A DNA stretch of 64,000 bases from the NCBI RefSeq assembly GCF_054482595.1, contig NZ_CM137008.1; one strand, written 5' to 3'. Below, piece by piece: positions 5,701 through 57,628 of this stretch (position 1 is its first letter; every line of letters begins with the position of its first letter). A program made the translations under genes and the position numbers. The notes below the pieces were generated by a model. It was not told the origin of the DNA. It saw only the letters and a list, made by a program, of their open reading frames with translations, and did not search any database.

Positions 5701-6594
5701 TTAGTCCGTAACTGTTAATGTGCTATCTGGCTCTGAAAATATTAACTCATTTAATTTTTGCATGTCATTAGATGAACCAGTTATACAACCCTCGGAACAG
5801 AATCGAGGTCCTAAAGACGGACCGAAAGCGTTTAAACAACTATGTGTTAAAAATCCATCACGATTATATGTTTCTGTATTTGCTGACGGTACTAAACGTA
5901 TACCATTAGGTTTTCTATTGGTTGCTCCAGGACCATTAACATTCCAGCTCCATACCCCTTGAGGTATTGGACCTCTATTTTGTAAGTGTGTACAACCAGG
6001 ATTATTTTTACATTGCATATTATTACCATTATTACCAGAGGCGACAGGAATAGTAAGCACATCATAAGAGTTATCATCATTTTGCGTATCTGAAACGCAT
6101 GAAAGCATACTTAAAGTTATGCTGTATAAACAGGTCGCTAATCCCAACGGGTCAATATCAGTTATCGGATTCAACGGATACTGATAAAAATTCCATCCCC
6201 CTTTCAGCCCAATCGGATCCTGAGTGATATATCGCCCCTGCAGCGGGTCATAATAGCGGTGGCGGTTGTAATACAGGCCGGACTCCTCATCATACTGCTG
6301 CCCCGGCAGGCGGATAAGCTGCTGCAGCTGATGCGGGTTCTCTTCATTCAGCAGGTTGCCCCACTCATCGTATTCTGCGCACCATTCTGTAGCACCTTCC
6401 GTGCTGATAAGCGCCAGCGGCAGGCCGCGATGGTCGCAGTGGTACAGGTGGATTTTTCGCGCCGGCGTGTACACCGGGTCCATCTGGTTTTGCATCTGCG
6501 CCACCGTCAGGCCGCACGATGCCAGCCAGCGGCGGCTTTCCTCACTCACCCGGTCAGCCAGGATTTCACTTTCCAGCCGGTCGAGCATCTGCAC
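5701..6594 (-). CDS. Orphan Rhs C-terminal module: truncated core end (through DPxGL) plus variable toxin tip, no native start (yibJ-like by position)
   Basis: ORF contains ...[39 protein letters not shown] followed by a ~145-aa AT-rich tip; homology to the main rhs core stops abruptly near 6595. Confidence 0.75.
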
Positions 6595-6595
6595 C
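6165..6595 (-). repeat. Rhs 3' core repeat, copy 3 (partial)
   Basis: About 430 bp near-identical to 10330-10760 and 8462-8890 (e.g. ccaatcggatcctgagtgatata...gcgggtcataatagcggtggcggttgtaatacaggccggactcctcatcatactgctg). Confidence 0.9.
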
Positions 6596-6635
6596 GTGCC
6601 GGCGGGAATCCCCCACTGTGCATAGGCAACTCACG

Positions 6636-7478
6636 CTATGAACGCTTCAGCTTATCAATAGCGGAAGTTATAATTTCATTGTCATCAAACTTGTACAACA
6701 TAGTATCTAAAACAGGAAGTAGCGTTTTATCACCTAATTCACCCGCAGCTTCAATGATATCATCATAAACAGTATTTTTTTTTAACTCATCGCATAAAAC
6801 AGATAAAACCCTTTTATCTTTTCTGTAGGAAAGTCAGATTATTGCTTCAATACGGACTTCCTCATTTTTATCCTGAAGCATCTCCACAAAATAATCCCTA
6901 ATATCACTATTATCATATTTATTGATATTTATTGCAAATGCGGCCCAGTTTCTGACATCTCCATTTGGATCTTTTAACAGATTAATCAATAGTGGAATTG
7001 TTGCTTTATCATTGATAACAGAAATAGCAAATGCTGTAGCACGTCTGACATTAGTCGATTTATCAAAAGCAGTAATTTGAGATTGTTCTACTATTTTAGG
7101 TGAATAATTTGGGTTTTTCTTGCATCGCTGAGCCGTTGACTCGATTGCCGTAGCTCGAACGCAAGCGCTCTTATCATTCAATGCCATATTGTTCAAAATA
7201 TTAAAAACATTATCTTCGCATTTTTTGCAAATTTTTATTTGCCCGAGTATAAATGCTCCGATATCTCTACGGATATAATTTTTATCAGAGCAGAACTCAA
7301 TTGCCAATCTAACAGCGTCTTGCCCACCTCTTAACTGTAATACTCTGGCAGATGAAATCCTTTTCAAGGAATTGTGATCATCAAGTAAGCGAAATAATTC
7401 ATCATCATTTAGTTTCTTACATTGATTATATAAACCATACTCTTTACTTGCCTTTCTTTTCTGGTATGTATTTGACAT
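6636..7478 (-). pseudogene. yibA: HEAT-repeat protein YibA, interrupted by an in-frame TGA
   Basis: Translation from the MSNTYQKRKASKEYGLYNQCKK start reads to ...EVRIEAII then TGA (6834-6836); the same frame continues LSYRKDKRVLSVLCDELKKNTVYDD...DKLKRS to a TAG at 6636-6638. Confidence 0.7.
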
Positions 7479-7582
7479 TGCAGGAACCTCCACAAAGGCT
7501 ATCTTTTTTTATCGTTTGACTGTCTGGAGTCCTCCACCTACTCTGCCATCAGCGCACACGATGTTTGATTATCCTTACATAC

Positions 7583-7966
7583 TTATTTTCCGTGGCCAAA
7601 ATTCAGAATTCTCCCATCATTTTTGCCTATTTCTATAATAAAAACCCCACCAGCAATTTGGTCTGAGTGAATGGTACCTTCAACAACCCAACTTGTTGTT
7701 AACTCAGTGATTTCGTATGGTTTTTCTTCTTCTGCGGCATCCTGTCCATAACGATTCTTAACATATATCTCAGCTAATTCCAATGCTATAGCTTTATTTT
7801 TAACCAAATTTCTAACGGTATATTTACCTTCACTTTCATACTTGCGCATTATTTTAATATTATTATTACACTGCGCCCATGTGTTGTATGTAAAAACAAA
7901 CAAAGATACAATGACACATTTCCTAAACAATATTTTTTTACATATTACCATGAACTCTGCAGACAT
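7583..7966 (-). CDS. Putative immunity protein for orphan Rhs tip 1 (possibly a lipoprotein or secreted)
   Basis: 127-aa ORF, AT-rich, hydrophobic N-terminus ([24 protein letters not shown]); overlaps the 3' end of the orphan toxin ORF; true start may be the internal Met at 7951. Confidence 0.5.
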
Positions 7967-9407
7967 TAGGTAATCCTTTTCCGTTTGTTATTTCCTTCCC
8001 GTGGTTATCTATTGCTTTAAAATTACCACTGGGCGTACCTAAATAAAATGACTTGATATTGTTATCTTTACTTTTAACTATTTTCTCATCTTTACCTGAA
8101 AATATTTCGTCCCAATATTCTCCATGACTATCTGCACCATGAGTATGATAAGCTGATACTTTCTCAGTACCATTAGGGCAAGGGCTATTGAATGGATATG
8201 ATCCTTTTCTTTCTCCTCGGTTAGGTGCTGTTGAGAAATATCTGCCACTATTATCCTTACATATTAAACCAGCGAACTCTTTATCTTCGCAAATAGATTG
8301 GCTATTTATTTTATTTAAGGCGTCATATGCGGTGCTATCTATAGAATCAAATTTATCTGGACCTATCATAGCGGATAGTGTGCCGCAAAGACCATTAGTA
8401 CATGCCCCCGATTTTGCATCCTCCCACATAGATAAACCCAGGGGGTCGATGTCTGATATCGGATTCAATTGATATCCATACAGGTTCCATCCCCCCTTCA
8501 GCCCAATCGGATCCTGAGTGATATACCTCCCCTGCAGCGGGTCATAATAGCGGTGGCGGTTGTAATACAGGCCGGACTCCTCATCATACTGCTGACCCGG
8601 CAGGCGGATGAGCTGCTGCAGCTGGTGCGGGTTCTCTTCATTCAGCAGGTTGCCCCATTCATCGTATTCTGCGCACCATTCTGTAGCCCCTTCCGTGCTG
8701 ATAAGCGCCAGCGGCAGGCCGCGATGGTCGCAGTGGTACAGGTGGATTTTTCGCGCCGGCGTGTACACCGGGTCCATCTGGTTTTGCATCTGCTCCACCG
8801 TCAGGCCGCACGATGCCAGCCAGCGGCGGCTTTCCTCACTCACCCGGTCAGCCAGGATTTCACTTTCCAGCCGGTCGAGCATCTGCACCAGCACCGGCGG
8901 GAACACCACACTGCCACCGTCTTCGCCGCCGGACTGCTGAAGGGCATCCGCCAGGCTGCGGCGCTGCGTTTTCGCCAGCTCACCGGTGGCAGTTTCGACC
9001 CTGATGAGTGGCGTGAAGCTCCCCGGCTGATAAATCGTCTGGATGCGGCTCCTGTCGTTCTGTATCGTGGTCAGCCGGTCGCCGTCCCAGCCGTACCAGG
9101 TCACTTGCGGTTTCCGTGACAGCGACATCCAGCCCGTCAGGTCCCGTTCACGCCGCCACACCCGTTTTGCCACCCTGCGGCCCAGCGGGTCGTAAAGATA
9201 GCGACTTTCGACCAGCGGCTCTGCATATTGTGTCCGCGTGTAGTGCACCAGCCGGTGCTGACTGTCGTAATGGTACCGGTGGGTGCGCTCATCATCCGTG
9301 CGGATAACCCCTTCCGGGATGAGGTCGGTTTTCTCCGTCAGCCTGCCGTGACGGTCATACCGGTAAAGATAGTGCGCGTCACGGGCGATACGGTTATCCG
9401 GCCACAT
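7938..9407 (-). CDS. Orphan Rhs C-terminal module 1: about 1 kb of core 3' end plus a distinct ~175-aa toxin tip, no native start
   Basis: 489-aa ORF beginning inside core sequence ([18 protein letters not shown]...), includes [27 protein letters not shown] then an AT-rich tip; core homology to the main gene ends near 9480. Confidence 0.75.
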
Positions 9408-9480
9408 GCTGAGGGCGCTGTCCGGGTGCAGCTCCGGGTCGGGCAGGCGGTTACCTGCCGGGTCTGTGGCATACGGGATA
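8462..9480 (-). repeat. Rhs 3' core repeat, copy 2
   Basis: About 1 kb highly similar to 10330-11350 of the main rhs gene. Confidence 0.9.
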
Positions 9481-9524
9481 TCAATGCCCAGGTTACATAT
9501 AATAATAAGAGCAATTAACTTAAT

Positions 9525-14969: not shown

Positions 14970-16361
14970 ATGACAACCGAAACGCGTTCCCTCTATAGTC
15001 AACTTCCGGCTATTGATCGCTTATTGCGCGATAGCTCCTTCCTTTCTTTGCGTGATACTTATGGTCACACCCGCGTGGTGGAATTGTTGCGTCAGATGCT
15101 TGACGAAGCGCGAGAAGTGATTCGTGACAGCCAGATGCTGCCCGCGTGGTGTGAAAACTGGGCGCAAGAAGTCGATGCCCGGTTGACGAAAGAGGCGCAG
15201 AGCGCGCTGCGTCCGGTGATCAACCTGACGGGAACCGTGCTGCATACCAATCTTGGGCGAGCTTTACAGGCGGAAGCTGCGGTGGAAGCCGTTGCGCAGG
15301 CTATGCGTTCGCCAGTGACCCTCGAGTACGATTTGGACGACGCCGGACGCGGACATCGCGATCGGGCGCTGGCGCAGCTGCTGTGCCGCATTACCGGCGC
15401 GGAAGATGCCTGTATCGTTAATAACAATGCGGCGGCGGTGTTATTGATGTTGGCGGCCACTGCCAGCGGGAAAGAGGTGGTGGTTTCTCGCGGCGAACTG
15501 GTGGAGATTGGCGGCGCGTTTCGTATTCCCGATGTTATGCGTCAGGCAGGCTGCACCCTACACGAAGTAGGGACCACCAACCGCACGCACGCGAATGATT
15601 ATCGTCAGGCGGTGAATGAAAATACCGCACTGTTGATGAAAGTACATACCAGTAACTACAGCATTCAGGGGTTCACCAAAGCGATAGACGAAGCTGAACT
15701 GGTGGCGCTCGGCAAAGAGCTGGATGTTCCCGTAGTGACTGATTTAGGCAGTGGCTCGCTGGTCGATCTTAGCCAGTACGGTTTGCCGAAAGAGCCAATG
15801 CCGCAGGAGTTGATTGCGGCGGGCGTCAGTCTGGTGAGTTTCTCCGGCGACAAGTTGTTAGGCGGGCCGCAGGCAGGAATTATCGTTGGTAAAAAAGAGA
15901 TGATCGCCCGCCTGCAAAGCCACCCGCTGAAACGTGCATTACGCGCGGATAAAATGACCCTCGCGGCGTTGGAAGCCACGTTGCGTCTTTATTTACACCC
16001 TGAAGCTCTGAGTGAAAAATTACCGACCCTGCGCCTGCTTACCCGCAGCGCAGAGGTCATTCAAATCCAGGCACAACGTTTACAGGCTCCCCTTGCCGCA
16101 CATTACGGCGCGGAGTTTGCGGTACAGGTTATGCCATGTCTTTCGCAGATTGGCAGTGGTTCGCTGCCGGTTGATCGCCTGCCGAGCGCGGCATTAACGT
16201 TTACACCCCATGATGGACGCGGTAGCCACCTTGAGTCATTAGCCGCCCGCTGGCGTGAATTGCCAGTGCCGGTGATTGGTCGTATTTATGACGGACGATT
16301 GTGGCTGGATTTACGCTGCCTTGAAGATGAGCAACGGTTTTTGGAGATGTTGTTGAAATGA
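14970..16361 (+). CDS. selA: L-seryl-tRNA(Sec) selenium transferase (selenocysteine synthase)
   Basis: 463-aa [24 protein letters not shown]...; stop overlaps the selB ATG (ATGA). Confidence 0.95.
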
Positions 16362-18202
16362 TTATTGCGACTGCCGGACACGTTGACCACGGCAAAACAA
16401 CCTTATTGCAGGCGATTACTGGCGTAAATGCCGATCGTCTGCCGGAAGAAAAAAAGCGCGGCATGACCATCGATCTCGGCTATGCCTACTGGCCGCAGCC
16501 GGATGGTCGTGTGCCTGGTTTTATCGACGTACCCGGTCATGAAAAGTTTCTTTCCAACATGCTGGCGGGCGTTGGTGGTATCGATCACGCGCTGTTGGTG
16601 GTGGCGTGCGATGACGGCGTGATGGCACAGACCCGTGAGCATCTGGCGATTTTGCAGCTGACCGGTAACCCGATGCTGACAGTGGCGCTGACCAAAGCCG
16701 ATCGCGTGGACGAAGCGCGTGTTAATGAGGTTGAACGCCAGGTAAAGGAGGTGCTGCAGGAATACGGTTTTGCTGAGGCAAAACTGTTTATCACCGCAGC
16801 AACCGAAGGTCGGGGAATTGATGCCCTGCGCGAGCATCTGCTTCAGTTACCAGAACGTGAACACGCCAGCCAACATAGTTTCCGCCTCGCGATCGACCGC
16901 GCATTTACCGTAAAAGGTGCCGGGCTGGTCGTCACCGGTACGGCGTTAAGCGGGGAAGTGAAGGTAGGCGATTCACTATGGCTGACTGGTGTAAATAAAC
17001 CGATGCGCGTGCGTGCGCTGCATGCGCAAAACCAGCCAACAGAAACCGCTCATGCCGGGCAGCGTATCGCGCTTAACATCGCGGGGGATGCGGAAAAAGA
17101 GCAGATTAACCGTGGCGACTGGCTGCTTGCCGATGTGCCGCCAGAGCCGTTCACGCGGGTGATTGTCGAGCTTCAAACCCATACGCCGCTGACCCAGTGG
17201 CAGCCGCTGCATATTCACCACGCCGCCAGCCACGTTACGGGACGCGTTTCGCTGCTGGAAGATAACCTTGCCGAGCTGGTGTTCGACACGCCGCTGCGGC
17301 TGGCGGATAACGATCGCTTAGTGTTGCGCGATATCTCGGCCCGCAATACGCTGGCGGGGGCGCGTGTGGTGATGCTTAACCCGCCGCGTCGCGGTAAACG
17401 TAAGCCGGAATATCTGCAATGGCTGGCGTCTCTTGCACGGGCGCAGAGCGATGCCGATGCGTTATCTGTTCATCTGGAACGCGGAGCGGTTAACCTTGCG
17501 GATTTCGCCTGGGCGCGCCAGCTCAACGGCGAAGGGATGCGCGAACTGCTGCAACAGCCGGGCTATATTCAGGCTGGTTATAGCTTGTTGAATGCGCCAG
17601 TTGCCGCCCGCTGGCAGCGGAAAATTCTTGACACATTAGCGACTTATCATGAGCAACATCGCGATGAACCTGGTCCTGGGCGCGAACGTCTGCGACGTAT
17701 GGCGTTGCCAATGGAAGATGAAGCGCTGGTACTGCTGCTGATTGAAAAAATGCGCGAAAGCGGCGACATCCACAGCCATCACGGCTGGCTGCATCTGCCA
17801 GATCACAAAGCGGGCTTCAGCGAAGAGCAGCAGGCCATCTGGCATAAAGCAGAGCCGCTGTTTGGTGACGAACCGTGGTGGGTGCGTGACCTGGCAAAAG
17901 AGACGGGAACCGACGAGCAGGCAATGCGTCTGACGCTACGCCAGGCGGCCCAACAGGGGATAATTACCGCGATCGTCAAAGATCGTTATTACCGTAACGA
18001 TCGGATTGTCGAGTTTGCCAATATGATCCGCGATCTCGATCAGGAATGTGGTTCAACCTGCGCGGCGGATTTCCGCGATCGCTTAGGGGTTGGGCGAAAA
18101 CTGGCGATTCAAATCCTGGAATATTTTGACCGCATTGGCTTTACGCGGCGTCGCGGAAATGATCATTTATTGCGCGACGCATTATTATTTCCGGAAAAAT
18201 AA
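16358..18202 (+). CDS. selB: Selenocysteine-specific translation elongation factor
   Basis: 614-aa [25 protein letters not shown]... (GTPase G1 motif), long C-terminal winged-helix extension. Confidence 0.95.
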
Positions 18203-22119: not shown

Positions 22120-23256
22120 ATGGATTTACTGATTATTTTGACCTATGTGGCTTTTGCATGGGCAATGTTTAAGATCTTCAAAATTCCCGTAAATAAATGG
22201 ACCATTCCCACAGCGGCCTTGGGTGGAATATTTATTGTCAGCGGTCTAATTCTGTTAATGAACTATAACCATCCGTATACCTTTAAAGCGCAAAAAGCGG
22301 TTATTTCTATTCCTGTTGTCCCACAGGTGACTGGTGTGGTGATTGAAGTGACGGATAAGAAAAATACGCTGATTAAAAAAGGTGAAGTGCTATTTCGACT
22401 GGACCCGACGCGTTATCAGGCGCGGGTGGATCGGCTGATGGCGGATATCGTTACCGCAGAACATAAACAGCGGGCGTTGGGCGCAGAGTTAGATGAGATG
22501 GTGGCGAATACTCAGCAGGCAAAGGCCACGCGGGATAAATTCGCTAAAGAGTATCAGCGTTACGCACGCGGCAGCCAGGCGAAAGTAAACCCGTTTTCAG
22601 AACGCGATATCGATGTGGCGCGGCAAAATTATCTGGCGCAGGAAGCCTCCGTAAAGTCATCGGCAGCGGAACAAAAACAGATCCAGAGCCAGCTGGATAG
22701 CCTGGTGTTGGGTGAACATTCTCAAATCGCCAGCCTGAAAGCGCAGCTCGCGGAAGCAAAATATAACCTTGAGCAGACGATAGTGCGTGCGCCGAGCGAT
22801 GGTTATGTGACCCAGGTACTGATTCGTCCGGGTACCTATGCCGCGTCGCTGCCGCTACGTCCGGTGATGGTGTTTATACCCGATCAGAAACGACAAATCG
22901 TGGCGCAGTTCCGTCAGAACTCCTTGCTGCGCCTGGCTCCCGGCGATGATGCGGAAGTGGTATTTAACGCTCTGCCAGGCAAAGTGTTCAGCGGTAAGCT
23001 GGCAGCCATTAGTCCAGCTGTTCCCGGCGGAGCTTATCAGTCGACCGGCACCTTACAGACGTTAAACACAGCGCCGGGTTCAGATGGCGTTATCGCGACC
23101 ATTGAACTGAATGAGCACACTGATTTGAGCGCTTTACCAGACGGTATTTACGCCCAGGTGGCGGTCTACTCTGATCATTTCAGCCATGTCTCGGTGATGC
23201 GCAAAGTGTTATTACGTATGACCAGCTGGGTGCATTACCTTTATCTCGATCATTAA
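22120..23256 (+). CDS. yiaV: HlyD-family membrane-fusion-like protein (paralogue of yibH)
   Basis: 378-aa ORF collinear with yibH over its entire length. Confidence 0.85.
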
Positions 23257-49262: not shown

Positions 49263-49415
49263 ATGCCGCAGAAATATAGATTGCTTTCTTTAATAGTGAT
49301 TTGTTTCACGCTTTTATTTTTCACCTGGATGATAAGAGATTCACTGTGTGAATTGCATATTAAACAGGGGAGTTATGAGCTGGCGGCATTTTTAGCCTGC
49401 AATTTGAAAGAGTAA
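49263..49415 (+). CDS. hokA: Hok-family small membrane toxin (type I toxin-antitoxin locus)
   Basis: 50-aa reading frame MPQKYRLLSLIVICFTLLFFTWMIRDSLCELHIKQGSYELAAFLACNLKE, typical Hok; followed by a GC hairpin (cggcgggaagttattcccgcc, about 49424-49444) resembling the 3' fold-back element of hok mRNAs. Confidence 0.8.
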   Translation: MPQKYRLLSLIVICFTLLFFTWMIRDSLCELHIKQGSYELAAFLACNLKE

Positions 49416-52657: not shown

Positions 52658-53317
52658 TTACAGCGGGCTTAAGGTAATTTCTACACGGCGGTTTTGCGCC
52701 TTACCTTCTGCGGTGCTGTTGCTGGCGATTGGGTTAGCCGGGCCAAGGCCCTGAGTACGGATGCGGCTGGCGTCCACGCCCTGGGTGATCAACGCGCTGG
52801 CAACGGAATCCGCACGCTGCTGGGAGAGACGCATGTTCAGATCGTGACCACCCGTGCTGTCGGTATAACCAATCACGTTAACCGCCGTTTTCGGATACTC
52901 TTTCAGCACCATTGCCACGCCGGTCAGGGTGTTAGCGCCCGCAGGTTTCAGGGTCGCGCTGCTGCTGTCGAAGGTCACATTGTTCGGCATATTGAGGATA
53001 ATGTTATCCCCGCTGCGGGTTACGCTAACACCAGTGCCGCGCATTTTGTCACGCAGCTTCGCTTCCTGCACATCCATGTAATAACCCACGCCGCCGCCCA
53101 GAGCTGCGCCTGCTGCTGCGCCAATCAGCGCGCCTTTACCGCGATCTTTCTTAGAAGAAGAGAGCGCTCCAATACCCGCGCCCACGAGAGAGCCCAGACC
53201 TGCGCCGATAGCAGATTTACCTGCTTCGCGTTCGCCGGTGTAAGGGTTAGTTGTGCAGCCAGATACCGCCAGAGCGCCACTCACTACGGCGGCAATAAGA
53301 TAAACACGTTTCTTCAT
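52658..53317 (-). CDS. yiaD: OmpA-domain outer-membrane lipoprotein
   Basis: 219-aa ORF with lipobox (ALAVSGCTTN), glycine-zipper region and C-terminal OmpA peptidoglycan-binding domain. Confidence 0.9.
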   Translation of the reverse strand: MKKRVYLIAAVVSGALAVSGCTTNPYTGEREAGKSAIGAGLGSLVGAGIGALSSSKKDRGKGALIGAAAGAALGGGVGYYMDVQEAKLRDKMRGTGVSVTRSGDNIILNMPNNVTFDSSSATLKPAGANTLTGVAMVLKEYPKTAVNVIGYTDSTGGHDLNMRLSQQRADSVASALITQGVDASRIRTQGLGPANPIASNSTAEGKAQNRRVEITLSPL

Positions 53318-53469
53318 TGTTAATCCTTAATAACCTTTTTATTCTTTGCCACGGGTTCCGTGGCGGGAGATTATGCCGCGTGAACATGAAGATTATTCCT
53401 GGGAATACTCGGAAATTTGTAAGTAATATTTAACTGCTCAATACATCTAACCTTTCAGGAGTCTTCGGT

Positions 53470-55803
53470 TTGGCCAACTCATCCTCACGATATTCCGTTC
53501 TGACTGCCGCCCATTGGGGGCCCATGCTGGTTGAAACCGACGGCGAAACCGTGTTTAGCTCGCGTGGCGCGTTAGCCACAGGAATGGAAAACTCCTTGCA
53601 GAGCGCGGTTCGCGACCAGGTTCACAGCAATACGCGGGTACGATTTCCAATGGTGCGCAAAGGCTTTCTCGCGTCACCGGAAAACCCGCAAGGCATTCGT
53701 GGGCAGGATGAATTTGTTCGCGTGAGTTGGGATGAGGCGCTGGATCTTATTCACCAACAACATAAACGCATTCGTGAGGCTTATGGTCCGGCATCGATTT
53801 TTGCTGGTTCCTACGGCTGGCGTTCAAACGGCGTGCTGCATAAGGCCTCGACATTATTACAACGCTATATGGCGCTGGCAGGCGGTTATACCGGGCATCT
53901 GGGGGATTATTCGACCGGTGCGGCACAGGCGATCATGCCGTATGTCGTGGGTGGCAGCGAAGTTTATCAACAGCAAACCAGTTGGCCGCTGGTGCTGGAA
54001 CATAGCGATGTCGTGGTGCTGTGGAGTGCTAACCCACTCAATACGCTGAAAATTGCGTGGAATGCATCTGATGAGCAGGGGCTTTCTTACTTTTCCGCAC
54101 TGCGTGACAGCGGGAAAAAGCTGATCTGCATTGATCCAATGCGATCGGAAACCGTCGATTTCTTTGGCGATAAAATGGAGTGGGTGGCACCGCACATGGG
54201 CACCGATGTTGCGCTGATGCTGGGGATCGCCCATACGTTGGTGGAAAATGGTTGGCACGACGAAGCGTTTCTGGCGCGTTGCACCACCGGTTATGCCGTC
54301 TTCGCCTCTTATTTGCTGGGCGAGAGTGACGGAATAGCGAAAAACGCCGAATGGGCGGCAGAGATTTGTGGTGTTGGCGCAGCGAAAATCCGCGAGCTGG
54401 CGGCTATTTTCCACCAAAATACCACCATGCTGATGGCAGGCTGGGGAATGCAGCGCCAACAGTTTGGTGAGCAAAAACACTGGATGATCGTCACGCTGGC
54501 AGCAATGTTGGGGCAAATCGGCACACCCGGCGGCGGTTTTGGTCTTTCTTATCATTTTGCCAATGGTGGTAACCCCACGCGGCGTTCTGCGGTGCTCTCT
54601 TCCATGCAGGGCAGCTTGCCGGGTGGCTGCGATGCGGTGGATAAAATCCCTGTTGCCCGCATTGTTGAAGCACTGGAAAACCCTGGTGGCGCATATCAAC
54701 ACAACGGTATGAACCGACATTTCCCGGATATTCGTTTTATCTGGTGGGCGGGCGGTGCCAACTTTACTCATCATCAGGATACCAATCGCCTGATCCGTGC
54801 CTGGCAAAAACCGGAGCTGGTGGTGATCTCTGAATGCTTCTGGACGGCGGCGGCAAAACACGCGGATATCGTTCTGCCTGCGACTACCTCTTTTGAGCGT
54901 AATGATCTCACCATGACCGGTGATTACAGTAATCAGCATCTGGTGCCGATGAAGCAAGTGGTGCCGCCACGCTATGAAGCGCGTAATGATTTTGATGTTT
55001 TTGCCGAGTTAAGTGAACGCTGGGAGAAGGGCGGTTATGCACGTTTTACGGAAGGAAAAAGTGAGCTGCAATGGCTGGAAACGTTTTATAACGTTGCCCG
55101 ACAGCGCGGGGCAAACCAGCAGGTTGAATTGCCGCCATTTGCTGAGTTCTGGCAAGCCAATCAGTTAATTGAGATGCCGGAAAACCCGGACAGCGAGCGG
55201 TTTATTCGCTTCGCTGATTTTTGCCGCGATCCGCAGGCGCATCCATTAAAAACCGCCAGCGGTAAGATTGAAATCTTCTCGCAGCGTATTGCCGATTACG
55301 CTTATCCGGATTGCCCGGGGCATCCAATGTGGCTGGTGCCGGACGAATGGCAGGGCAATGCCGAACCGGAACAGTTACAGGTACTTTCTGCTCATCCGGC
55401 GCATCGTCTGCACAGCCAGCTGAATTACAGTTCTCTGCGCGAATTGTACGCGGTGGCAAACCGTGAGCCTGTCACCATTCATCCTGACGATGCCCAGGCG
55501 CGCGGCATACAAGATGGCGATACTGTTCGGCTGTGGAACTCACGCGGGCAAATTCTTGCCGGAGCGGTCATTAGCGAGGGAATTAAACCTGGCGTGATTT
55601 GCATTCACGAAGGGGCATGGCCGGATCTGGATTTAACCGCTGACGGTATTTGTAAAAACGGCGCAGTGAACGTGCTGACCAAAGATCTCCCCAGCTCGCG
55701 GCTGGGGAATGGCTGTGCGGGTAATACGGCGCTGGCATGGCTAGAAAAATACAACGGTCCGGAACTGACACTTACAGCGTTTGAACCACCGGCCAGCTCA
55801 TAA
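53470..55803 (+). CDS. bisC: Biotin sulfoxide reductase (molybdopterin oxidoreductase)
   Basis: 777-aa ORF; the track start at 53470 is a TTG codon preceded by SD aggag; DMSO-reductase-family domains. Confidence 0.9.
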
Positions 55804-56212
55804 TCCAGGTGGGTAGTTGGGTTTCATCCTGCCATGCGCAATCGACAATGTGAAAACCCTGCGCCTGGTAAAAATCTATCGCCGGTTGATTTTTTTGATA
55901 AACCTCCAGCATCAGATGGGGATGGCGCTGTTGCACATACTGCATCAGCGCCTTACCAATACCGCGCCTGACGGCCTTCGGTGCGACAAACATCGCTGCC
56001 AGAAATCGGCCTTCCATAATGCTGACAAAACCAAGAAGCTTACTGTCTTCTTCCCAGACCCAGTTTTGTGCGTTGGCAAGATAGGCATCCCGCACCAGCG
56101 GAATGCACTCGCGCCAGTAATTCGCTTTTATAAAGGGATGGCCCCAGGTTGTACTTTCCAGCCACAGTTCGAGGATCGCGGGGAGTTCTGAACGTTGCGC
56201 TTCCCTAATCAT
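55772..56212 (-). CDS. yiaC: GNAT-family N-acetyltransferase
   Basis: 146-aa ORF; start overlaps the tag stop (ATGA); 3' end overlaps the bisC 3' end by 32 nt, convergent. Confidence 0.88.
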
Positions 56213-56772
56213 GGTTTATTTCCCGGATAGCAACAGCAGCCAACCACATGATCATTCACCAGCCCACATGCCTGCATAAAGGAGTAACAGATTGTGGTAC
56301 CGACAAACTTAAAACCACGTTTTTTCAGTGCCTTAGATAGGGCGTCGGAGGCGGGCGTAGATGTGGGGATTTCGCTCAACGTTGTGGCTTGTGTCACCTG
56401 TGGCTGATGATTTACAAACGACCAGACAAAGTCGGCAAACGGTTCGCCGTTCTGTTCCATTTGCAGGTACGCCCGCGCATTACCAATAATTGCCTGAATT
56501 TTCCCGCGATGGCGGATAATCCCGGCGTCCTGTACCAGTCTTTCGACATCCTCTTCCTGCATTGCGGCAACCTTCACCGGATCGAACTGATGAAAGCAGG
56601 CGCGATAGTTTTCGCGTTTTTTGAGGACGGTGATCCACGATAACCCAGCCTGCTGCCCTTCCAGGCAGATCATTTCGAACAGTTTTTTACTGTCAGTTTC
56701 AGGCACGCCCCACTCATTATCATGGTAGGCAATATAAAGCGGGTCCTGACTCACCCAGCCGCAACGTTCCAT
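56209..56772 (-). CDS. tag: DNA-3-methyladenine glycosylase I
   Basis: Start at MERCGWVSQDPLYIAYHDNEWGVP (187 aa); the ORF-track N-terminal extension to 57009 is rejected. Confidence 0.93.
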   Translation of the reverse strand: MERCGWVSQDPLYIAYHDNEWGVPETDSKKLFEMICLEGQQAGLSWITVLKKRENYRACFHQFDPVKVAAMQEEDVERLVQDAGIIRHRGKIQAIIGNARAYLQMEQNGEPFADFVWSFVNHQPQVTQATTLSEIPTSTPASDALSKALKKRGFKFVGTTICYSFMQACGLVNDHVVGCCCYPGNKP

Positions 56773-56929
56773 ACTTTCCCTCGCTATGTACCCGATCGTA
56801 AAAATTTCAGCCGCTTTTCTTGACGCATCGGTGAAAAAGTCAATATTTAATACAGGGCTACTATGCCCGATATCCTTCATACAATGACAATAATATTGCC
56901 GAATTCGGCTCTTCCCTGGAGTCGTGTTA

Positions 56930-57628
56930 ATGATCATAAAAAAAAGCGGTGGTCGCTGGCAGCTAAGCCTGCTGGCGAGTGTGGTAATCAGTGCCTTTTT
57001 TCTCAACACAGCTTACGCCTGGCAACAAGAATATATCGTTGATACGCAACCCGGGCATTCCACAGAGCGTTACACCTGGGATAGTGATCATCAACCTGAT
57101 TACAACGATATTTTGTCGCAACGTATTCAAAGTAGCCAAAGGGCGCTGGGACTGGAAGTCAATCTGGCGGAAGAAACCCCTGTGGATGTGACCAGCAGTA
57201 TGAGTATGGGCTGGAATTTTCCTTTATATGAACAGGTTACAACTGGCCCGGTCGCGGCATTACATTACGATGGCACAACCACCTCGATGTATAACGAGTT
57301 TGGCGACAGTACTACCACTCTGACCGATCCGTTATGGCATGCCAGCGTGAGTACCTTAGGCTGGCGTGTTGACTCCCGGCTTGGCGATCTCCGACCCTGG
57401 GCGCAAATCAGCTATAACCAGCAATTTGGCGAGAATATCTGGAAGGCGCAATCAGGCCTGAGCCGGATGACGGCGACAAACCAGAACGGCAACTGGCTGG
57501 ATGTCACCGTAGGCGCTGATATGTTGCTCAATCAAAATATTGCCGCCTATGCCGCGCTATCTCAGGCAGAAAATACCACTAACAATAGCGATTATCTGTA
57601 TACGATGGGGGTTAGTGCCAGATTTTAA
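56930..57628 (+). CDS. yhjY: Outer-membrane autotransporter-like beta-domain protein
   Basis: 232-aa ORF from ATG 56930 after SD ctggag; signal-like N-terminus; C-terminal aromatic residue (…VSARF). Confidence 0.85.
   Translation: MIIKKSGGRWQLSLLASVVISAFFLNTAYAWQQEYIVDTQPGHSTERYTWDSDHQPDYNDILSQRIQSSQRALGLEVNLAEETPVDVTSSMSMGWNFPLYEQVTTGPVAALHYDGTTTSMYNEFGDSTTTLTDPLWHASVSTLGWRVDSRLGDLRPWAQISYNQQFGENIWKAQSGLSRMTATNQNGNWLDVTVGADMLLNQNIAAYAALSQAENTTNNSDYLYTMGVSARF

Follow-up and report, generated by a model that had tools for sequence, protein, structure and literature searches.

The yiaD / bisC / yiaC-tag region studied here is, with a probability of about 85%, a normal E. coli locus in which every compact feature is a conserved piece of ordinary gene organisation. 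The window, that is the whole stretch of 64,000 nucleotides analysed (contig NZ_CM137008.1 of assembly GCF_054482595.1), had been singled out in its initial annotation for a TTG start of bisC, a convergent overlap between bisC and yiaC, and ATGA junctions of tag with yiaC and of selA with selB. All of these are standard, already annotated E. coli layout, conserved in enteric bacteria and of ordinary kinds. The features discussed below are the following.

16358-16361, plus strand: ATGA in which the selB start overlaps the selA stop, from the annotation (selA 14970-16361, selB 16358-18202)
53346-53374, plus strand: candidate sigma-70 promoter of bisC (TTGCCA, 17 nt, GATTAT) between the divergent genes yiaD and bisC, a prediction from a consensus scan only
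53457-53461, plus strand: Shine-Dalgarno sequence AGGAG, 8 nt before the bisC start, read directly
53470-55803, plus strand: bisC coding sequence, 777 aa, TTG start and TAA stop, from the open reading frame and the annotation
55520, minus strand: published Rho termination region of transcripts that run out of yiaC, converted from MG1655 3714344(+) through the collinear bisC coding sequence, of low resolution
55687-55709, minus strand: hairpin within bisC codons 740-747, a terminator-like scan match 63 nt beyond the yiaC stop and a candidate 3'-end or terminator structure
55772-55803, shared by both strands: convergent coding overlap, made of the last 9 codons, the stop and 2 nt of a tenth codon of both bisC and yiaC
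55772-56212, minus strand: yiaC coding sequence, GNAT N-acetyltransferase, 146 aa, from the open reading frame and the annotation
56209-56212, minus strand: ATGA in which the yiaC start overlaps the tag stop, read directly
56209-56772, minus strand: tag coding sequence, 3-methyladenine DNA glycosylase I, 187 aa, from the annotation

Gene organisation and protein families

The gene boundaries in the window are exactly those of RefSeq NZ_CP019359, which is 100% identical, and of K-12 MG1655 (b3549-b3551). For K-12 bisC (b3551), yiaC (b3550) and tag (b3549) as given by RefSeq/EcoCyc, the order, strands, starts and stops are all identical to those in the window, with the same TTG start, the same 32-nt and 4-nt overlaps and an identical sequence in the start region. 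The window itself comes from another E. coli lineage than K-12, with 100% identity to strain XH990 and 99% protein identity to K-12. A TTG start is carried by one of the 51 intact coding sequences in the window, and such starts amount to about 3% genome-wide in E. coli (bioRxiv 10.1101/063800). Two same-strand junctions have a 4-nt overlap, and 3 of the 10 convergent junctions overlap, namely yiaV/yiaU (4 nt), hokA with a small ORF (24 nt) and bisC/yiaC (32 nt). The TTG start and the overlaps are uncommon yet normal, and they form no statistical anomaly. What does go beyond chance is the conservation of these features over about 69 species.

The three proteins belong to well-defined families. 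BisC, annotated as the biotin / free methionine-S-sulfoxide reductase, a cytoplasmic molybdoenzyme of the DMSO reductase family, has the Pfam domains Molybdopterin_N (PF18364) at residues 12-52, Molybdopterin (PF00384, E 2e-91) at 56-517 and Molydop_binding (PF01568) at 636-741. Its residues 7-775 align with mature DMSO/TMAO reductase structures (phmmer: 7l5i, E 1e-276; 1eu1, E 7e-248), so that both molybdopterin domain types and full-length similarity to solved reductases place it in the family. YiaC is a GNAT protein by its matches to PF00583 (Acetyltransf_1, E 5.5e-15), PF13508 and PF13673, its nearest solved relative being the paralogue YjaB (2kcw, E 2e-13), while Tag matches Adenine_glyco (PF03352, E 3e-83) over residues 6-181 of 187.

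Translation initiation of bisC

The TTG at 53470, read in the initial annotation as the bisC start preceded by aggag, is the first codon of the open reading frame with AGGAG 8 nt upstream, and RefSeq and K-12 agree with it. The arrangement is shared far beyond E. coli. Among 70 orthologous loci, AGGAG or GGAG stands 6-8 nt ahead of the start codon in every one, and the start codon so preceded is TTG in 66 (65 of 69 enterobacterial species), GTG in 4 and ATG in none. In E. coli, the exact 40-mer spanning the Shine-Dalgarno sequence and the TTG is found in at least 4188 of 5426 genomes. The 7-11 codons right after the start vary freely among orthologues. On the upstream side, TTG is the first ATG, GTG or TTG after an in-frame stop 12 codons upstream, and an alternative upstream start is rejected, no such codon lying between that stop and the TTG.

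Downstream, the motif LTAAHWGP, which precedes both Met19 and Met39, is invariant in BisC orthologues at the protein level while its third codon positions vary, and from residues 7-10 onward BisC matches mature DMSO reductase 1eu1, right from the beginning of the latter. As candidate starts, Met19 and Met39 would cut into this motif and into the Molybdopterin_N domain. With just 10 residues before the motif that matches the mature DMSO reductase start, BisC has no twin-arginine signal and is of the cytoplasmic form. The periplasmic TorZ/DmsA-like S-/N-oxide reductases, which carry a Tat signal, belong to the same enzyme family, and in them LTAA(H/R)WG opens the mature domain as it does in BisC. 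Paralogues 66% identical to BisC, found in Citrobacter, Trabulsiella and Entomohabitans, have a 39-residue twin-arginine leader (MKLTRRDFIK...) in three translated sequences, and 9 of 10 paralogues have an ATG preceded by a Shine-Dalgarno sequence at the position of the leader start, whereas BisC is leaderless and starts with TTG. None of the 10 paralogues has yiaC as a neighbour.

The opposite view is that the TTG is an annotation over-extension and that BisC truly starts at a downstream ATG, either Met19 (53524) or Met39 (53584). Older database versions of BisC are shorter, at 739 aa, which presumably would correspond to Met39, and the K-12 protein record stands at version 3. ATG is also the commonest start codon (~83% of genes; 10.1101/063800), and no experimental BisC N-terminus was found in the literature searched; among supplements, the N-terminomics set of TRAINSPOTTER is without an entry for bisC, P20099, b3551 or yiaC, and the in-vitro initiation-site set of INRI-seq is without one for bisC or b3551. 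The single match to 'bisC' in bioRxiv 511675 is the author name Bischler. The initial annotation had named a downstream ATG as the finding that could overturn the TTG, and comparison tells against it: the Met19 position is I, V or L in Citrobacter, Salmonella and many others, the invariant motif lies upstream of it, the Pfam N-terminal domain and the solved homologues extend ahead of it, and the Shine-Dalgarno sequence is conserved before the TTG in all 70 loci. We consider a downstream start extremely improbable.

Translation of BisC from UUG 53470, positioned by the AGGAG 8 nt upstream, is well supported. UUG initiation falls in the class of 10-100% of AUG (10.1101/063800). A start codon that has stayed UUG across Enterobacteriaceae, with GUG in a few species and AUG in none, would likely hold synthesis of this molybdoenzyme at a modest level, selection being suggested by the conservation itself. 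Further upstream, both hexamers of the predicted promoter are kept in Escherichia, Citrobacter, Salmonella, Klebsiella/Raoultella, Kluyvera and Enterobacter. An RNA element in the bisC leader, such as a Moco riboswitch, was considered and rejected, as no Rfam match occurs at E<=1 in 53000-57300, and the leader folds no better than shuffled sequences (z = +0.6).

The convergent overlap of bisC and yiaC

The 3' end of yiaC was described as reaching 32 nt into the 3' end of bisC on the opposite strand, and indeed the two coding sequences have 55772-55803 in common. Across more than 20 genera, all but one of the 71 loci have an overlap of 23, 32 or 38 nt, and the bisC stop always lies 409 nt from the yiaC start. 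Within the overlap, bisC codon position 3 opposes yiaC position 2. The entropy of bisC third positions drops from ~1.1 to 0.47 solely in the last 20 nt, and the most conserved of the 228 four-fold sites in bisC is that of A775 (GCC), opposing YiaC Trp141. By this comparison the overlap is old, older than the split of the sampled genera, with bisC and yiaC sharing their last ~10 codons. The double reading-frame constraint is limited to ~20 nt, and the remainder is a freely drifting YiaC tail whose stop codon shifts.

The tag/yiaC and selA/selB junctions

The shared ATGA holds at both same-strand junctions for which it was noted: the tag stop (56209-56211) and the yiaC start (56210-56212) lie in one ATGA on the minus strand, and selA and selB meet in another at 16358-16361. 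In both pairs a stop and a start on the same strand overlap, and the upstream gene contains a ribosome-binding sequence. This resembles coupling by overlapping stop and start codons (ATGA/TAATG type), known in many operons including selAB. Overlap of tag and yiaC is found in nearly every genus sampled, its length being 23 nt in 46 loci, 20 in 8, 11 in 5, 4 in 8 and 1 in 2, so that most relatives of the window's tag/yiaC pair differ from the ATGA type, with 23 nt instead of 4. Inside tag, GGAGG stands 6-8 nt before the yiaC ATG in most genera, while E. coli has the weaker GGGAA. The ancestral form is the 23-nt overlap with internal GGAGG, kept in most genera, and the 4-nt ATGA of Escherichia is a derived variant. 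We infer translational coupling from this geometry: tag and yiaC would be co-transcribed, and translation of yiaC would be coupled to termination of tag through the stop/start overlap.

Transcript ends and antisense transcription

Because the coding sequences overlap, complete bisC and yiaC transcripts must overlap as well. The layout leaves no room for an intergenic terminator, so that either transcript has to end within the opposing gene. For the transcript leaving yiaC, supplementary file 2 of PMC7815308 reports a Rho termination region antisense in bisC, ~250 nt beyond the yiaC stop, at MG1655 3714344(+) with a Rho score of 7.3 and p 5.5e-14, classed as antisense to bisC. These calls compare DirectRNA-seq with and without BCM in 800-nt windows, which gives them low positional resolution, and the published data show the greater read-through under bicyclomycin that defines a Rho-dependent terminator. 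The region is in line with Rho-dependent antisense suppression in E. coli, being likewise BCM-sensitive and antisense within bisC, downstream of yiaC; it differs in that its antisense RNA prolongs a bona fide mRNA, tag-yiaC, at the 3' end and is no spurious product of an antisense promoter. By the published data, tag-yiaC transcription is thus ended by Rho within bisC, on its antisense strand and a few hundred nt from the overlap, possibly helped by the conserved hairpin that lies 63 nt beyond the stop of yiaC. For the bisC transcript, RNAalifold sliding windows over +/-400 nt around the bisC stop, all species pooled, give weak signals and no convincing terminator inside yiaC. SMRT-Cappable-seq supplements are without a 3'-end entry for the locus.

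On the tag-yiaC strand the hairpin reads UUCCCCAGC-CGCGA-GCUGGGGAG, followed by AUCUUUGGUC, with a 9-bp stem (6 GC) and a 5-nt loop. Wobble-pair counts (3 vs 3 at the informative pair) favour neither strand as the one that the hairpin serves. The hairpin could be taken as a tag-yiaC terminator of the intrinsic type that lies among bisC codons and acts in place of Rho. In its favour are the GC-rich stem and short loop soon after the yiaC stop, its occurrence across most genera, where synonymous sites show some compensatory CG/GC and CG/UA exchanges, and the retention of the rare codons CCC and GGG within it. Yet the tail AUCUUUGGUC, with 4 U in its first 9 nt, is no proper U-tract and encodes conserved residues; the stem is absent or broken in Klebsiella/Raoultella, Shimwellia and Cedecea; and the shuffle control is known to be inflated by the relatedness of the sequences. 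Moreover, the Term-seq tables of Adams 2021 (PMC7815308) list no RNA 3' end within MG1655 3713000-3714199, where low expression could hide one, and the BCM-sensitive signal of the same study lies further downstream. An intrinsic terminator at this place is therefore unlikely, and termination by Rho remains the preferred reading.

The initial annotation had further proposed possible antisense interference between the bisC and tag-yiaC transcripts. We regard this as plausible, sense/antisense pairing or polymerase collision of the two mRNAs being physically possible. In classical excludons it is long UTRs that overlap, and the expression of the two genes is mutually exclusive. The yiaC-bisC pair resembles the convergent excludons of the concept of Sesto et al. 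in being convergent with necessarily overlapping transcripts, and differs from the classical ones in that the coding sequences themselves overlap. Overlapping transcripts of opposite-strand neighbours are indeed present, by the 32-nt coding overlap, by antisense transcription to the Rho region and by the excludome listing of MG1655, in which ExcludonFinder counts yiaC-bisC among 165 convergent transcriptional overlaps and sees it in at least 50% of 58 RNA-seq sets (PMC12288877). A functional excludon would say more: tag-yiaC transcription into bisC, and bisC transcription into yiaC, would each down-regulate the partner, either through colliding polymerases or through duplex cleavage by RNase III, setting the repair/acetyltransferase operon and expression of the sulfoxide reductase in mutual antagonism. 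The overlap kept in 70 of 71 loci, its recurrence in the RNA-seq sets, antisense transcription reaching ~250 nt or more into bisC before the Rho stop, and a hairpin with some covariation in the antisense tract agree with such a role. Transcript overlap, however, follows automatically from coding overlap, so the listing adds little; dual-coding constraint alone explains the persistence, as an earlier stop in either gene would shorten a conserved C-terminus; and the overlap length drifts (23, 32 or 38 nt) as for a passive tail. In the literature searched, we found no study of interference between the two transcripts or of its effect on expression, and no data on expression anticorrelation, mutants, mutually exclusive expression or RNase III processing. 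A functional excludon is, on balance, quite improbable.

Conclusions

A still wider reading would join the UUG start, the convergent overlap and the bisC hairpin, which may have been retained together across enterobacteria, into a conserved post-transcriptional module, in which Rho limits and the hairpin shapes a tag-yiaC read-through that tunes an intentionally weakly translated sulfoxide reductase. We hold this to be highly doubtful; if true, it would tie the salvage of oxidised methionine and biotin to alkylation repair or to protein acetylation. Should the hairpin or the antisense overlap alone be regulatory, it would be one more case of known classes (excludons, 3'-end structures in coding sequence) and no new principle.

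Under the reading of an ordinary, conserved E. coli locus, the significance is slight outside annotation quality, where the comparative data give solid support to a non-ATG start of bisC that seems to rest on computational annotation. The locus also illustrates, cleanly and on a small scale, the persistence of a convergent overlap, with ~20 nt dually constrained and then a drifting tail, and it shows where transcripts end if two genes leave no space between them: within the opposing gene, through Rho termination.

Organization of the locus

The window derives from an Escherichia coli chromosome; its segment 53300-57100 matches strain XH990 and many more strains at 100% identity, and 5422 of the 5426 complete E. 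coli genomes contain it. The RefSeq annotation of the locus is as follows:

yiaD, minus strand
bisC, 53470-55803, plus strand, biotin/free methionine-S-sulfoxide reductase
yiaC, 55772-56212, minus strand, GNAT N-acetyltransferase
tag, 56209-56772, minus strand, 3-methyladenine DNA glycosylase I
yhjY, plus strand

The layout is equal in K-12 MG1655 (b3549-b3552), where the bisC start region is identical, TTG included. The genes are confirmed members of their assigned families, with boundaries and overlaps as in the reference annotation. On the whole, the features of this locus are already known, and published tables contain both its transcript overlap and its Rho region.

Within the window, ATG starts 50 of the 51 intact annotated CDSs and TTG starts bisC alone; TTG serves as the start in about 3% of E. 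coli genes (bioRxiv 10.1101/063800). Three of ten convergent junctions overlap, and two same-strand overlaps are of 4 nt:

selA/selB, 16358-16361, same strand, 4 nt
tag/yiaC, 56209-56212, same strand, 4 nt
xylH/xylG, same strand, 23 nt
ybfB/rhsC, 1 nt
yiaV (plus)/yiaU (minus), 23253-23256, convergent CDS overlap of 4 nt, TTAA
hokA (plus)/annotated hypothetical 23-codon ORF (minus), 49392-49415, convergent, 24 nt
bisC (plus)/yiaC (minus), 55772-55803, convergent, 32 nt

By these tallies each feature is of a known kind and not especially rare; the informative signal in the TTG start and the overlaps is their conservation. The pair yiaU-yiaV is also among the convergent excludons, neighbouring opposite-strand genes with overlapping transcripts, reported by ExcludonFinder (PMC12288877), and ysaE-hokA, on the same list, may equal the hokA/hypothetical-ORF pair. 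Several annotated pseudogene fragments lie in the Rhs region (6139-9494): an RHS core fragment, yibA with an internal stop, and a truncated rhsB that shares 29 nt with yhhH.

Conservation of the TTG start

The initial annotation placed the bisC start at TTG 53470 behind aggag, and this is borne out, with AGGAG at 53457-53461 and a spacer of 8 nt. For comparison, 80 loci with BisC relatives were fetched, one genome per species; of the 82 loci that the set totals, 70 are orthologous with yiaC-tag downstream and were scored, representing 69 species because E. coli occurs twice. Two further orthologous loci were left unscored, L062 for its disrupted 5' end and L069 because a contig end cuts it. 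L062 (Leclercia adecarboxylata NCTC13032) has in-frame stops within the first roughly 12 bisC codons, from pseudogene formation or assembly error.

All 70 loci have AGGAG or GGAG 6-8 nt 5' of the start codon, and the codon preceded by this Shine-Dalgarno (SD) sequence is TTG in 66, GTG in four (one Leclercia, two Silvania and Shimwellia) and ATG in none. At least 4188 of the 5426 E. coli genomes contain the exact 40-mer that spans SD and TTG, and the stretch after the upstream stop has no in-frame ATG, GTG or TTG before this one. From the start to the first conserved motif there are 7-11 codons, variable in length and sequence.

Initiation at the downstream in-frame ATG codons, Met19 or Met39, would truncate conserved protein. 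The motif LTAAHWGP, which is invariant, lies upstream of Met19; the Pfam domain Molybdopterin_N covers residues 12-52; and the alignment of BisC with mature DMSO reductase begins at BisC residues 7-10, opposite the first ordered residues of that structure (1eu1 residue 8), as it does for other solved family members. Met19 itself is replaced by Ile, Val or Leu in Citrobacter, Salmonella arizonae and others. Together with the SD evidence, these observations rule out both starts for practical purposes. No direct experimental N-terminus of BisC was found in the literature and published datasets searched, so the TTG assignment is a comparative one.

A second BisC-like gene, of 66% identity, is present in Citrobacter, Trabulsiella and Entomohabitans (ten loci, L063-L068, L070-L072 and L074). 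The twin-arginine leader MKLTRRDFIK...AWA appears in all three sequences translated, an SD-preceded ATG stands at that position in nine of the ten loci, and none has yiaC as neighbour. This gene looks like a periplasmic paralogue.

Upstream of bisC, the yiaD-bisC intergenic region has a promoter-like TTGCCA-17-GATTAT (53346-53374, plus strand), whose hexamers are conserved across genera. Its spacer contains an inverted repeat (GCCACGG GTT CCGTGGC in E. coli), the arms of which co-vary in other genera, e.g. GTCAC...GTGAC in Raoultella; the repeat may be a regulator binding site common to the divergent yiaD and bisC promoters. Just 5' of the SD, about 15-30 nt upstream of the start, a further motif, CACCTGCA (loci L015-L060), is conserved in most genera outside Escherichia and the Citrobacter freundii group and is missing from E. 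coli.

Overlaps between the genes

The three overlaps reported in the initial annotation are all found as described: bisC and yiaC share the 32 nt at 55772-55803, and ATGA is common to the tag stop and yiaC start (56209-56212) and to selA and selB (16358-16361).

Of 71 loci, 70 have the bisC/yiaC overlap, most often as 32 nt (32 loci) or 38 nt (31), with 23 nt in seven; the sole locus without it is L075, where yiaC is disrupted. In L075 (Citrobacter amalonaticus AUH_CA_2023_1) the yiaC start region is disrupted and the gene truncated, again a pseudogene or an assembly error. The distance from bisC stop to yiaC start is a constant 409 nt, and the yiaC stop alone shifts, giving YiaC of 143, 146 or 148 aa. 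BisC ends in a conserved LTAFDPPAS-, aligned with the DMSO reductase C-terminus to within 2 residues of that protein's end, while YiaC retains PTWIM-W and is variable afterwards.

Position 3 of bisC codons stands opposite position 2 of yiaC codons and vice versa, a phase that Rogozin et al. 2002 reportedly found preferred in convergent overlaps. Third-position entropy in bisC drops from about 1.1 bits, its level both upstream and in the distal overlap, to 0.47 in the last 20 nt; A775 (GCC in 66 of 66), the most conserved of the 228 four-fold sites of bisC, lies opposite the invariant YiaC Trp141. About 20 nt are thus genuinely dual-coding, and the other 12 nt or so shared in E. coli are unconstrained YiaC tail. 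The bisC stop is TAA or TGA by locus, matching synonymous ATT/ATC of a YiaC Ile.

The tag/yiaC overlap occurs in 69 of 71 loci (23 nt in 46, 20 in eight, 11 in five, 4 in eight and 1 in two), and most genera have GGAGG 6-8 nt 5' of the yiaC ATG, made by tag Pro-Gly-Gly codons. The ATGA form is found in E. coli, E. albertii and one further Escherichia species, and elsewhere in Trabulsiella, Shimwellia, Cedecea, one Citrobacter and one Klebsiella locus. With this scattered distribution it looks like a recurrent derived variant. Such stop/start overlap is the textbook arrangement for translational coupling, which is putative here. An INRI-seq table (PMC9825163, supplementary file 6) gives, for a single replicate class, a weak ATT initiation signal in frame with yiaC and 108 nt inside it (MG1655 3713759, plus; window about 56105, minus); it is probably noise.

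Transcription across the convergent junction

Because there is no intergenic space, complete bisC and yiaC mRNAs must overlap. The pair yiaC-bisC is among the 165 MG1655 convergent transcriptional overlaps listed by ExcludonFinder, which were seen in at least half of 58 RNA-seq sets (PMC12288877). On the tag-yiaC strand, the data of Adams et al. 2021 put a region of bicyclomycin-sensitive Rho termination at MG1655 3714344, classed antisense to bisC (Rho score 7.3, p 5.5e-14; PMC7815308). In window coordinates this is 55520, some 250 nt beyond the end of yiaC, at low positional resolution because the method compares 800-nt windows. On the plus strand, no terminator-like site beyond the bisC stop came up in a simple scan, and a pooled RNAalifold scan was likewise weak there.

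The terminator scan gave one feature within bisC:

stem-loop, 55687-55709, either strand, bisC codons 740-747

In the tag-yiaC direction, it follows the yiaC stop at a distance of 63 nt. Most enterobacterial genera retain it, among them Escherichia, Citrobacter, Enterobacter, Kosakonia, Lelliottia, Leclercia, Kluyvera and Pseudocitrobacter, with some compensatory pair exchanges at synonymous sites (CG 25, GC 8, UA 1 at one pair; CG 35, UA 2, UG 2, GU 1 at a second). Counts of wobble pairs favour neither strand as the user of the hairpin (3 against 3 at the informative pair). Rare codons are kept in it, CCC in 58 of 67 (15% of Pro codons gene-wide) and GGG in 48 of 67 (21% of Gly codons), and the shuffle control for the hairpin inflates significance where sequences are related. 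A terminator role is disfavoured by the poor U-tract, the loss of the stem in Klebsiella/Raoultella, Shimwellia and Cedecea, and the lack of a mapped 3' end there in published Term-seq tables (PMC7815308). The hairpin is plausibly a candidate, not an established, 3'-end or stability element.

Antisense interference between bisC and tag-yiaC, raised in the initial annotation, is possible; no data on reciprocal expression effects were found in the literature searched.

What the comparison adds to this known locus is how deeply the TTG start and the overlaps are conserved and how far the dual constraint reaches, together with the derived nature suggested for ATGA and the embedded hairpin. UUG initiation falls in the class of 10-100% of AUG (bioRxiv 10.1101/063800), and we infer that the persistent weak TTG codon would keep BisC synthesis modest.
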